64,000 bases of DNA from Cyanidioschyzon merolae (lineage: Eukaryota): the NCBI GenBank assembly GCA_000091205.1, contig AP006494.2. The stretch is one strand, 5' to 3'. The position numbers and the translations under genes are program-made. Every line of letters starts with the position of its first letter. The first letter of the stretch is position 1. Shown here piece after piece: positions 21,801-25,192 of the stretch. Below the pieces are notes generated by a model. The model was given only the letters and a program-made list of their open reading frames with translations, was not told the DNA's origin and did not search any database.

Positions 21801-22692
21801 CCTGGCGACTGGCAAGGTCTGACGCATCGTGCCTTTCTGCAGCTTCTGCTGCAAGCAGCTCTTCGAACGATGCGTCTTGATCGTCGATTTCCTTCTGAGT
21901 AGCTTTTTTGGCCTTCCGTTTCTGTTTCTTGCTCGATTTCGTCTTTGTGGATTCCTCCTCAACTGCTTCGAGCTCCGCGAGAATGGCCTCAATTTCGGCA
22001 TCTTCCTCGTGCGACACCCCCGTATTCCCTTTCTTAGCGGAGGAGGAACGTTTGGTTGTCGTGTTGCGGAGAGCATCTGTGGGTGTCCAGGTACTGGGCA
22101 CCGCACCGGCCCGCGCATAATTCTTCTCTTTCGAAGTTGTCCCTGAAATCTCTGTTCCCGAACTAGTGCCGATCGCGTTACGAAAATCTTGCGGAACCGC
22201 AAGTGCCCCCGAGGCAGGGCTTCGTGAACCGTTCAACGAGGTATTATCACCGGTCCTACCACTTCGCCTGTGACTCGACCGGGTCGAATCGCTGCTCTGG
22301 GCGTCATCAGCGTCGGAGTTACCCTCGTCCGAGAGGCCAAGTGCTGAGAAAGCTGCAAATATGGAATTTCCTGGAGCGCTTTCGCCTATCCCAAGGTCTT
22401 CGTCGACGTCGGCGGGTCTCGGAAGCTCCCGCGAGACCCCGCGTCGACCGCGTTCCGGACGGTGAACTGTCTCCGTCTTAAGGTCTGACAAGCTTTCCTT
22501 ATTTCGTTTCCCCCTAGAGGCGTCAAGAGAAAGAGTAGTGACTCCCTCGTTCCCTAAAGATTGTCGGTGATCAGTTACGTTAAAAGTGGAGTCCTCTCCG
22601 TCTAGTGCTGGTAAAGCGGGCGCTCCAGACTTCTTCTTCTTCGCCTTTTTACCGCCCTTGACGGCCACAGGCATCTCTATATCCGGTTCCAT
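18895..22692 (-). CDS. EIF5B: Eukaryotic translation initiation factor 5B (eIF5B / IF2 homologue), single exon
   Basis: 1265-aa ORF. Lys/Glu/Arg-rich N-terminal half, then a GTPase domain '[44 protein letters not shown]', 'DTPGHESF', 'NKVDRL' and the full eIF5B domain II-IV architecture. Confidence 0.95.
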   Translation of the reverse strand: [1265 protein letters not shown]

Positions 22693-22751
22693 GACAGTAT
22701 CTACGTGCGCTTTACGTACACTGCACCGCCGCGGACACCATCAACGCCGTT

Positions 22752-25192
22752 CTAGGTCGAGCGACGCCAACCGTGCACAGTAGTGGCGAGAAAGCCGTCC
22801 CAGACGGGGCGTCGCCAACCGACGTGCAGACGCCCCCCAGTATTTTTGGACCGGCCACCTACGGCTGCTTCCAACTTCTTCTCATATAGTTCCACTTTGA
22901 GAGGTTGTCCAATAAAGTTCGCTCTTGGCAAGTACGGAGGTCTGTTCTCCAGCATCGCACATCTCCTTATATTGATAGCGGCGTTTAAGTCACGGTTCAC
23001 AACTCCATCCGTTTCTTGCCATCATTAGTTGTGCTAATCAATGCGAGTAGTCCACGAACTTTCGCCCTCCTTTCCATTTGCTCCTCCGTCAGCGGTCCGT
23101 ACTTTTTTATATCCTCAGGGCTCCTCTGGCACTTTTCCATCTCCACTCCCTGAAGTGTACGACCCAGCTCATGGTGTGTATAGGACGTTCGGAACTCATC
23201 TACAGGTATCGTAACGAAACGCCGTGCACACTCTTTGTACGTTCTTGTCGTTGGAGCTGGCGTTGTTCCTTTTTGGGTCTTCCAGCGCCCTGCTCCATAA
23301 GCCACTACGAGCCTCTGATTTTCATCCTCCTTGAGGGCACTCAACTGATTGAAAAAATTCGCGAACGCGCGCTGCCTCCCACCGTGTAGATTCATTCGCA
23401 GACGAGCCCACCGGGGCTTTGTATACTCCTCCCACAGAGCATCCCAATGCGCAACACGAACTTCCATGAATTTCCGAAAAACTTCAAAGTCCGCTCCGCG
23501 GCTCGTCACCTCGCTCATAGCTTCCAGGTGATCCTTCATTCCTGAATTCCAAGTCTCGATTTTCTTCCTCGCATTCATTATACCAGATTCTCGATAGCAT
23601 CTCGCTCTCGAGAACCTCAAAAGACGCATGTCTTTCTGACGTACGTTACCATCAGTACCATCTTCCGCAAGCTTGGGTATTGCGATGGTGATGATATTCG
23701 TGTTCCCAGGGTCCGCGCCAACGACAAAGTCGTCATCGTGCACTTTCTGCATCGCAGGATCCGCCTCCTTCTTTTCTTCGTGCTTCACCGCGCCAACGAC
23801 AAGGTCGTCATCCTCCACCTCCTGAATCGCAGGTTCGGCCTCATTCTCATCTTCATGGTTCGCCGCGCCAACGACAAGGTCGTTATCCTCCACCTCCTGC
23901 GTCGCAGGACCCGCCTCCTTCTCATCTTCATCCTTCGTCACGTCAACGACAAAGTCGTTATCCTCCACCTCCTGCGTCGCAAGATCCGCCTCCTTCTCAT
24001 CTTCATGGTTCGCCGAGGGCGGAACTGGCCGATCTTTCTTCAACCGCCGATAGTGTACACACAAGGCTACTCCATCGATTTCGATCATCCCAGTGAACAA
24101 CTTTTGCTTGTTCACTCTCAGACGTTTGAAATTGGAGACGTTCTTCAAGTACGTCTCCCGGTTTTCGCCGGTGAAGTTCTCCCTGCTGACACTGAACTCC
24201 GGACTGATGTCCCTCATGATGCCGTAGAGGACGCCGGAGTCGATAGTCACAAAACGTGACTTGATGTTGCACATTGGAACCACGTCGAAGCGCTTCCCCA
24301 TTAGGAAAGCCTTCCGTCTCTCCCACTCTTCATTTTTTTTCTCACTCACCTTCGTTTCTGCCTTGCGTTCGAGCTCTCGGTCCAGAAACACGAAATATCG
24401 CAGGATGAGGCGATAGTATCTTTCCTTATCTTTTTCAACGCTGATATCTTGTCTGTTGGATACGCCAGCCCCAGTACCGCACGATGCTCTTTTATAGCCG
24501 CACGGATCGCAGAAGCTGCATCCGTGTTCTCGTTTGGCGCCTTCTTGTCGACAAATTCGACCTCATCTTCATGCTTGCGATCGCTCGTGATGCCGTTGAT
24601 CATCGCCCATTTTCCATTGCGAGAGATGTCCGGAGACAACGCAAACACGGCGCGTACCATGAAACGTTCGAAGTTCTCTGTCAAATGGTTCTTCAGGTTC
24701 GTGGGGTACTTCATCGCCCCGTACGTGTAAATATCCCGGTCACCCTTGTATCGAGTACCATTGAAGCTGTAAAGGGGATATTTTTCGTGGAGGGCGCGCA
24801 CCCGCTCATTTTCCCTCCGCACTTCCCCTGTGCCGAGCATCAGCTGACGAATAAAGGTTTGTCGAAAAACTTGTCTGGAATCTCGACCGTTTCCATGTTC
24901 GCGACGTCTTCGTACATCTCCCTTGCTAAATGCATCAGTCCTGACGACGCCTTTATAATATTCTTGGAGTATGACGCAACACGTTTTTCGATAGCGTCTC
25001 GCAACTTTTCCCTGTACGGATCCTTGATATGTCCAAGAAGAAAGGTTTTCACCACCACCTCGTCGCACAGTTGTCTCTCGTGCCGCCTTCGACGTAGGAG
25101 CTCCGCCTTTCGGTCCTTCTTCTCTTCCTTTTCTTCTGGACTCGGCACTATTTTTTTCTGGCAGCCGGCGAACCTGGGCCTCCAGGATCGTG
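22752..25192 (-). mobile_element. Near full-length Fanzor1/TnpB-like (OMEGA, RuvC-type RNA-guided nuclease family) transposon gene, about 810 aa conceptual product, interrupted by about four single-base frame slips; ORF pieces 25148-24840, 25068-24346, 24391-22997, 23000-22752
   Basis: RuvC-I-like '[17 protein letters not shown]'. RuvC-II region 'RLVVAYGAGRW', with the canonical Glu absent at this position, as reported for Fanzor1. The zinc-finger position reads 'DEFRTSYTHHELG', i.e. His-rich and lacking CxxC. RuvC-III 'VNRDLNAAINIRR', followed by 'RPPYLPRANFIGQPLKVEL'. Frame switches occur at an A7 run (about 25160), a T5 run (about 24860), an A8 run (24333-24340) and a GG site (about 22998). 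Each is consistent with a single-base indel. Confidence 0.6.
23719..24020 (-). repeat. 4 x 75-bp in-frame tandem repeat inside the Fanzor-like ORF, encoding a 25-aa unit (…[23 protein letters not shown]…) that duplicates the segment immediately preceding the RuvC-I motif
   Basis: The DNA units gacaa(g/a)gtcgt(c/t)atcctccacctcctg(a/c)(a/g)tcgca(g/a)g…ctcatcttcat… are directly visible. Translated units are '[25 protein letters not shown]', '[25 protein letters not shown]', '[25 protein letters not shown]' and '[11 protein letters not shown]'. Confidence 0.85.

Follow-up and report, generated by a model that had tools for sequence, protein, structure and literature searches.

Transposon-derived promoters and 5' untranslated regions (5' UTRs) are a general phenomenon in eukaryotes. 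To our knowledge, almost nothing is known about the roles of Fanzor elements in their native hosts. CMe-1A of Cyanidioschyzon merolae is a family of approximately 150 copies, each approximately 80% identical to a consensus of 3169 bp that encodes a 734-amino acid (aa) Fanzor1 protein (Bao & Jurka 2013, PMC3627910). The family is without terminal inverted repeats, and its target duplications were not determined (PMC3627910). The 64,000-nucleotide (nt) stretch of DNA analyzed here, referred to as the window, carries a Fanzor-like element directly upstream of the gene of the essential translation factor eIF5B. A CMe-1A copy was inserted in this lineage, has decayed, and is now crossed by eIF5B transcripts, whose start and core promoter probably lie in the tail of the element. 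The element and the use of transposons as promoters are known; new are a specific case, backed by transcripts, in which the gene is essential, and an association of the whole family with host start codons.

The gene and the 3' end of its mRNA are placed as follows.
18895..22692, minus strand: eIF5B coding sequence, 1265 aa, single exon, supported by Pfam domains, relatives, and the conserved start position.
18737..18782, minus strand: 3' end zone of the eIF5B mRNA, from six contig ends; the poly(A) of contig L106 starts after 18782.

The open reading frame (ORF) at 18895-22692 matches the Pfam families GTP_EFTU (1e-35), IF-2 (4e-20), and GTP_EFTU_D4, and its best named relatives are those of Cyanidiococcus yangmingshanensis (66%) and Cyanidium caldarium (68%). 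An exact look-up of the window eIF5B protein gave no record. Direct reading of the minus strand places the TAG of the last Fanzor ORF at 22754-22752 and the eIF5B ATG at 22692-22690, as the sequence-only reading had correctly reported, with 59 nt (22751-22693) between them. A longer eIF5B N-terminus is excluded by an in-frame TGA at 22743-22741. Protein comparison (1265, 1259, and 1248 aa) showed that the N-terminus aligns with the Cyanidiococcus protein and that the start is the orthologous start.

The conserved tail in 45-64 aligned copies of the element ends with ...CGTTCGACTTTCGAACGGCGTT; beyond it come a GATGGTG of weak conservation and unrelated flanks. With the published end, the 3' terminus is at 22745; inclusion of the TT moves it to 22743, and inclusion of GATGGTG to 22736, so the unique DNA before the eIF5B ATG measures 43-52 nt. 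In a second copy (L007), which is 98% identical overall and lies in front of a glycerol-3-phosphate (G3P) dehydrogenase gene, homology is lost at ~22733.
22736..22745, minus strand: element 3' terminus, ...GAAAGGCG in the consensus and ...GAACGGCG in the window at 22745 (CMe-1A consensus, blastn, and multiple alignments).
22693..22735, minus strand: unique flank from the element end to the eIF5B ATG, 43 nt, or 52 nt with an element end at 22745; homology to 45 copies ends at or before 22736.
22712..22741, minus strand: 9-codon upstream ORF in the eIF5B leader (ATG GTG TCC GCG GCG GTG CAG TGT ACG TAA), by sequence reading.

The start codon of the 9-codon ORF (22741-22712) is supplied by the terminal GATGGTG of the element, and the ORF stops 20 nt (19 intervening bases) short of the main ATG. 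It is contained in all six transcript contigs described below and could damp or regulate eIF5B translation.

These six contigs (L106-L111; 4.0-4.6 kb) come from one sample series, were obtained from the eIF5B protein cluster, and were mapped by blastn. eIF5B is the sole gene on each of them, and all 3' ends fall at 18737-18782, a zone of 45 nt. L106 carries a tail of 34 A, 113 nt past the stop codon, and ends with ...GGCATGCCAAGC where the genome reads ...AAGCTGCTTCC. As these 34 A are non-templated and absent from the genome, L106 is a polyadenylated transcript. The collinear 5' ends were found at 22776, 22782, 22800, 22814, 23042, and 23168, or -84, -90, -108, -122, -350, and -476 nt relative to the ATG. 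The element boundary (22736-22745) is crossed by all six contigs and none starts in the gap of 43-52 nt, which is the opposite of an arrangement with starts in the gap and no junction-spanning transcripts. Chimeric transcription across the junction, as proposed in the sequence-only reading, is thus supported by six contigs, one of them polyadenylated; its placement of the eIF5B 5' UTR and core promoter inside or at the edge of the element is supported by the transcript 5' ends and the mapped element end, by which the 5' UTR, and most likely the core promoter, are element sequence.
22776..22814, minus strand: 5'-end cluster of four contigs (L106, L108, L107, L110), a candidate start zone in the tail (blastn).
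22840..22849, minus strand: A-rich box CCAAAAATAC, 26-49 nt upstream of the 5' ends 22814 and 22800; other copies have CCAAAAAGAC.

The box is, speculatively, TATA-like. The four short contigs do not end at a repeat boundary, as the near-identical second copy diverges at 22882. An interpretation of short eIF5B contigs as DNA with repeat-boundary ends (22853-22881, 25372-25384) was ruled out for L106-L111 by the poly(A) and the common 3' ends. Two contigs carry additional sequence at their 5' ends: positions 1-97 of L106 are an internal piece of the eIF5B coding sequence (window 21193-21289) joined at 22776, and positions 1-23 of L108 are the start-codon region joined at 22782 via a shared ACTGT. 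These chimeric ends are probably assembly or template-switch artefacts.

The remaining two contigs, L109 and L111, extend far upstream into the Fanzor pseudogene, to 23042 and 23168, and they fit another explanation in which eIF5B is expressed by read-through only, from a promoter at the 5' end of the element (~25300-25380), as a long RNA, with no initiation activity in the tail and with the ends at -84 to -122 being assembly truncations. L006, which spans 25303-18771 and ends in the eIF5B poly(A) zone, and L007-L010, which all begin at 25372-25384, also agree with it. However, four of the six independent contigs end in a zone of 39 nt without a repeat boundary, as the divergence at 22882 lies 70-100 nt further upstream. 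For an abundant essential factor, poor translation would be expected from a 2.6-kb leader that contains many ATGs and four broken frames, and assembler merging of overlapping transcripts can also yield long contigs. Read-through as the only source of the mRNA is considered unlikely.

A third arrangement would place both promoter and start in the gap of 43-52 nt, with the element as a neutral neighbor that is tolerated through the tiny core promoters of a compact genome. Intergenic DNA in Cyanidiales is short, and in five loci the element end is also separated by only 4-48 nt from the stop codon of a convergent gene, so tight packing is general. Against this, all six contigs run past the gap into the element, and host upstream regions free of the element have a median of ~500 nt, and measure 1.1-1.5 kb at the orthologous eIF5B loci. 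A promoter confined to the gap is very improbable.

A CMe-1A copy of ~2.7-3.0 kb (~22736 to 25452/25705, minus strand) was inserted co-oriented with eIF5B, 43-52 nt upstream of its ATG, and has since decayed, with four frame lesions and a damaged scaffold. According to the preferred explanation, the main eIF5B start probably lies within the tail at ~22776-22830, with the core promoter in the element-derived sequence of ~22776-22850. The 5' UTR would consist of the last ~40-80 nt of the element and the flank of 43-52 nt, including the upstream ORF ATG derived from the element. In this way, the eIF5B core promoter and most of its 5' UTR would be element sequence. Part of the transcription may read through from further upstream in the element.

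Comparison of orthologous loci showed that the insertion is lineage-specific. Cyanidiococcus yangmingshanensis (L011) and a second Cyanidiales genome (L012-L014) share the gene order Snf7-eIF5B-L30-ORC5-E2-GMPPB with the window; in both, the spacer between Snf7 and eIF5B is 1.1-1.5 kb and no Fanzor homology was found within 8 kb. Since these loci keep the gene order without the element, the insertion is derived in the window lineage. An intermediate relative (90-98% identity) with the exact empty site was not found, and after 99% identity the next eIF5B is at 66%. Alignment of the eIF5B upstream regions across genera revealed no conservation, and no ancestral promoter was traced in this way. 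The genes near eIF5B in the window encode GMPPB, 2-oxoacid dehydrogenase E2, ORC5, L30, Snf7, ClpP, a DEAD helicase, a HAT/TPR protein, and MutS2-Smr. Taken with the eIF5B relatives, these genes assign the window to a hot-spring red alga of the Cyanidiales. Snf7 (36682-37476) is separated from eIF5B by ~14 kb (22693-36681) in the window, compared with 1.1-1.5 kb in L011 and L012. The extra ~14 kb contains the Fanzor element and repeats (26761-27487 resembles 33145-33862; 26880-27244 resembles 46671-47035), a 910-aa ORF (27986-30718) without a domain match, and an ORF with SET and histidine-phosphatase domains (30466-32073).

The protein-coding part of the element is broken. Its Fanzor reading frame is split into four pieces in different frames (24840-25148, 24346-25068, 22997-24391, and 22752-23000), which correspond to the following features.
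24346..25207, minus strand: pseudogene N-terminal region, split over two additional frames, ATG at 25207-25205 (comparison with P0003 and the CMe-1 protein).
22997..24391, minus strand: main ORF fragment of 464 aa that carries the motifs RuvC-I (GADPGNTN) and RuvC-II (VDEFRTS) (homologues).
22752..23000, minus strand: last ORF fragment with the RuvC-III motif NRDLNAAINI (ORF and comparison with relatives).
23713..24015, minus strand: 75-nt tandem repeat in four copies, an acidic repeat inside the Fanzor frame (Tandem Repeats Finder and self-blast).

The ORF that ends at 22752 is a fragment of 82 aa only, in a frame that differs from that of the 464-aa piece, which in turn is out of frame with 24346-25068 and 24840-25148. 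Lesions were identified by comparison with the intact relatives P0003 (752 aa), P0004, and P0006 and with the published CMe-1 protein. The first is a 7-nt deletion that gives a stop near 25160, the second is a +1 shift near 24860, and the third is a -1 shift near 24415. The fourth is a -1 shift at 23000, a 1-nt deletion at GAGTT-GTGAAC where the relatives have KKRMEFVNRD. Identical frame breaks are present in more than ten independently assembled public contigs with 99.3-99.7% identity to the window, so they are real and not sequencing errors. Thus, the "Fanzor-like gene" of the sequence-only reading is a member of the Fanzor family as was said; it is not an intact gene and is a pseudogene with four frame-breaking lesions. 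The 464-aa fragment has 157 homologues and is 75-78% identical to P0003, P0004, and P0006. All RuvC D...E...D motifs are recognizable in the window copy, but RuvC-III lies in another frame; the single-frame D...E...D arrangement of the three intact relatives is absent from it. The 75-nt repeat occurs once in the C. merolae consensus and two to five times in relatives, and its region is disordered in the AlphaFold2 (AF2) model.

The tail in which eIF5B transcripts probably begin is also a conserved structured part of the element.
22743..22935, minus strand: conserved structured 3' tail that overlaps the end of the Fanzor frame (nhmmer E = 1e-58 to the tail profile).

Per-sequence folds of the last ~190 nt of better-preserved copies contain a long-range helix, in which CAGTAGTGG is paired with CCACTACTG, and three hairpins: one internal (GGCGTCT...AGACGTT), one formed by GGGCG...CGCC, and one terminal, which reads CGTTCGA/TCGAACG or, in a sub-family, CGTTTTTC/GAAAGACG. 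Counted over the alignment, pairing in these helices reaches 85.7%, compared with 32-64% with slid partners, and covariation is modest: double-sided changes number 25 versus 13.7 +/- 2.4 in shuffles, with one pair split as GC 17 : CG 16. RNAalifold on the tail alignment supports one helix only, the hairpin with the GC/CG split. A naive scan of stacked pairs gave many spurious G/U-rich pairings, and the helices common to per-sequence folds were used instead. The tail appears to resemble an omega-RNA scaffold that overlaps the end of the reading frame (cf. PMC10432273). Compared with the family consensus structure, the window copy has a mutated 5' strand of the long-range helix (CAGCCGTAGG for CAGTAGTGG), and two of the seven pairs of its terminal hairpin are broken as read from the alignment. 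Its scaffold thus appears degraded, and an active guide RNA is not implied. The sequence-only reading had predicted an omega-RNA overlapping the eIF5B leader; an omega-RNA-like tail does overlap the transcribed leader, but its scaffold is degraded in this copy.

Fanzor omega-RNAs run 14-15 nt beyond the conserved end (PMC10432273), and in an active copy the flank 22693..22735 would take the position of the guide segment. This position (PMC10432273) and the structured tail across the family could suggest that the locus is active and that its omega-RNA carries a guide matching the leader of eIF5B, with ongoing RNA-guided homing or regulation of eIF5B. In contrast, the nuclease frame is broken four times with RuvC-III out of frame, the 5' strand of the long-range helix is mutated, and two of seven terminal pairs are lost. 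There is no Rfam match, and nothing tested supports action in trans by an intact family member. The frame lesions and the damaged omega-RNA-like scaffold indicate that this is not an active RNA-guided nuclease locus, and such activity is very improbable.

The position next to eIF5B was compared with that of other family members. In 44 unique metagenomic copies with a downstream ORF of at least 120 aa, for which the ORF-based gene calls are crude, the downstream ORF was co-oriented in 31 loci (binomial p = 0.0096). The first ATG lies within 50 nt of the element end in 11 of these 31 loci, compared with 6.8% expected (p = 3.6e-6), and within 150 nt in 18, compared with 19.5% expected (p = 2.5e-6). 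The null model was uniform insertion into promoter-side host intergenic intervals of the same contigs (median tandem spacer 496 nt). Eight of ten near-element ORFs have ordinary Pfam host domains: Tim17, ribosomal L37ae, carboxyltransferase, bicarbonate transporter, SF1 helicase, methyltransferase, Exo_endo_phos nuclease, and a Vps54-like protein. The geometry found at eIF5B is typical of the family. Insertions near an ATG may survive since the element tail can support initiation, and we propose that related copies often lie directly upstream of co-oriented host genes because such support lets them persist.

The family pattern may come from either a start-proximal target preference or survivorship. 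It is possible, although doubtful, that CMe-1A-type elements preferentially sit upstream of co-oriented host ATGs, by targeting or survivorship, and that their tails act as portable promoters and 5' UTRs of housekeeping genes. If so, Tim17, RPL37a, eIF5B, and G3P dehydrogenase would be among the genes driven by Fanzor tails, and a sizeable share of the transcriptional wiring of minimal genomes would be built from Fanzor ends. In a stronger version, the RNA-guided nuclease itself would bias insertion or retention toward the neighborhoods of transcription starts.

Two further loci resemble the eIF5B junction. In L007 (2375-4702), the final ORF fragment of the element continues without a frame change into the gene of G3P dehydrogenase, so that the public annotation gives a fused protein of 775 aa. 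The enzyme itself probably starts at MMPCVRMRRSF or MRRSF, 0-20 nt away from the end of the element, whose terminal ATGs are in frame with the G3P dehydrogenase ORF. Within the window, a second CMe-1A-type tail fragment was found at 55701-55867 (minus strand; nhmmer E = 2e-13). A 190-aa ATG ORF at 55066-55638 (minus strand), without a Pfam match, begins ~30-60 nt past the expected tail end, a geometry like that of eIF5B.

Several points weigh against a start and core promoter in the tail. The 5' ends are those of de novo assembled contigs and are not cap-selected, so the positions are approximate and true starts are possibly further upstream; L106 and L108 carry chimeric 5' extensions. Poly(A) is present on one contig only, and metatranscriptome status is inferred from this tail and the gene-limited extents. 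The two far-upstream contigs leave room for some read-through from the element's own promoter. The proximity of element ends to convergent stop codons shows packing that is not promoter-specific. Gene-adjacent tails are no better conserved than others (0.762 vs. 0.762, p = 0.87), and given this equality there is no signature of selection on the tail. Finally, a 2025 paper states that no endogenous Cyanidioschyzon promoter has been dissected (PMC12770821).

Assignment to CMe-1A was made with the published consensus (PMC3627910, supplementary file 2) and the CMe-1 protein (supplementary file 3). In blastn, the consensus matches 25452-23941 at 82% and 23792-22765 at 90% nucleotide identity; the match begins at CMe-1A position 671, and positions 671-3145 align. 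The window fragments are recognizably pieces of the CMe-1 protein. Judged by these matches, the window copy belongs to the published CMe-1A Fanzor1 family, which was already known. A representative search over 1.84 billion proteins gave 1444 proteins with E <= 0.001, and a profile (A5; 60 sequences) was aligned from P0006 and 56 distant relatives. This profile matches the solved Fanzor1 structures 9cf0 (PpFz1, Parasitella; E = 4.9e-21), 8gkh (SpuFz1, Spizellomyces; 7.3e-13), and 9cer (GtFz1, Guillardia; 4.2e-6). For the intact relative P0006, the AF2 model has a predicted local distance difference test score (pLDDT) of 76 and a predicted template modeling score (pTM) of 0.71. In a Foldseek search of PDB, its top seven matches are Fanzor1 structures (SpuFz, PpFz, and GtFz; E = 8.6e-12 to 1.8e-7), followed by Cas12i, Cas12o, TnpB, and Cas12f, that is, the split-RuvC fold of TnpB/Cas12 type. 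With the shallow family alignment (A4), a PDB profile search gave no matches and AF2 reached a pLDDT of 32; structure matches and a usable model were obtained only after distant relatives were added. Neither the fragments in the window nor the intact relatives matched a family in Pfam or NCBIfam, and the precomputed PF26935, which is only DUF8286, was rejected as a family label. No Rfam matches and no tRNAs were found in the window. The zinc-finger region between RuvC-II and RuvC-III reads SYTHHELGC...EKC in the family, not CxxC...CxxC as in the C4 motif of Bao & Jurka, and two distant relatives have sub-threshold matches to PF07282 (Cas12f1-like_TNB, E ~0.002).

The 5' side of the element consists of two parts.
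25208..25452, minus strand: AT-rich 5' non-coding part of the core element (blastn of the consensus, whose start at position 671 is 25452).
25453..25705, minus strand: alternative 5' module, common to six other copies, in place of the TE-N2_CMe-like first 670 nt.

A metagenome scan found more than 437 copies, many of which begin at 25451-25475. Consensus positions 1-670, which hold the 5' 635-bp TE-N2_CMe module, have no match within the window. The window copy is thus a 5' variant of the CMe-1A family with a mosaic 5' side. The same insertion, with identical tail and leader, is present in all of the more than 20 same-species contigs examined, including those with a differing element body. In L096, L097, and L103, host DNA is ~99.7% identical and insertion, tail, and leader are the same; the element body is only ~81% identical upstream of ~23270 (L096, L097) or ~23100 (L103). 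The L007 copy is nearly 100% identical to the window over 25373-22883 and then ~75% in the tail. These patterns point to ectopic gene conversion among copies. L096 and L097 were also considered as a 5%-diverged strain with selection on the tail; this was rejected, as they differ in the element body alone, with 99.7% identity in the host DNA. The element has 82-90% DNA identity to the CMe-1A consensus, compared with only 70-82% of the well-conserved host genes ClpP, GMPPB, and the C-terminal half of eIF5B to Cyanidiococcus and L012. If the consensus is taken as that of another genus, this contrast suggests either activity of a slowly evolving master copy after the split or horizontal transfer.

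Other repeats are present elsewhere in the window. Two pairs of duplicated blocks (34383-35760 / 41926-43300 and 38451-40128 / 50083-51760) are 99.3% and 99.8% identical. Within these blocks lies a second TnpB/Fanzor-like family, which has diverged much more and has 262-aa ORFs (38816-39604 and 50448-51236) with ~28% identity to the RuvC part. A fragment at 41944-42270 (minus strand) lies ~150-250 nt upstream of the ClpP start (41695, minus strand).

The transcripts indicate that expression of an essential translation factor probably begins within a Fanzor1 tail, in a geometry that is found again next to many other, unrelated housekeeping genes. This provides a handle on promoter architecture in a transformable model group with tiny genomes and on the host-side consequences of Fanzor proliferation. 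It also reveals an annotation hazard, in which terminal element ORF fragments in frame with host genes lead to false N-terminal extensions, as in the 775-aa call of L007.

Compared with CMe-1A/CMe-1 as published (PMC3627910), the protein is nearly the same residue for residue (VPSPEE...), and the 3' terminus ...GAAAGGCG, the lack of evident terminal inverted repeats, and the multi-copy state with many decayed members are shared. In contrast, the window copy is without the first 670 nt (TE-N2_CMe part), has another 5' module instead, and contains four 75-nt repeats rather than one in addition to frameshifts. The position next to host genes and the 3' RNA structure were not among the topics of the 2013 description.

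SpuFz1 (PDB 8GKH; Saito et al. 2023, PMC10432273) is similar in fold (Foldseek E = 1.9e-11, template modeling score ~0.5; profile E = 7e-13), in the RuvC D/E/D motifs, which are present in intact CMe-1A relatives, and in a conserved structured region at the 3' end of the element that overlaps the end of the reading frame. However, sequence identity is only ~16%. The SpuFz1 element has 33-bp inverted repeats and TA duplications, whereas neither is evident in the CMe-1A family. In place of the canonical CxxC...CxxC zinc finger, the CMe-1A family has HH...C...C, and its omega-RNA and nuclease activity are only predicted.

Exapted transposon promoters and 5' UTRs share with this locus a lineage-specific upstream insertion and transcripts that run from the element into the host coding sequence. 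Here, the donor is the Fanzor tail that encodes the RNA scaffold, not a long terminal repeat or another end known to bear a promoter. The recipient is an essential housekeeping gene in a very compact, nearly intron-free genome, with no regulatory novelty shown. Fanzor ghost loci, which have an omega-RNA without the protein (Saito et al. 2023), are similar in that protein-dead or protein-less copies of the window keep the 3' tail, as in the eIF5B-side pseudogene and the tail-only fragments at 55701-55867 and 45883-45994. Ghost loci are proposed to supply extra guides, whereas the tail studied here is a decayed one, and what it is documented to yield is an mRNA of the host.

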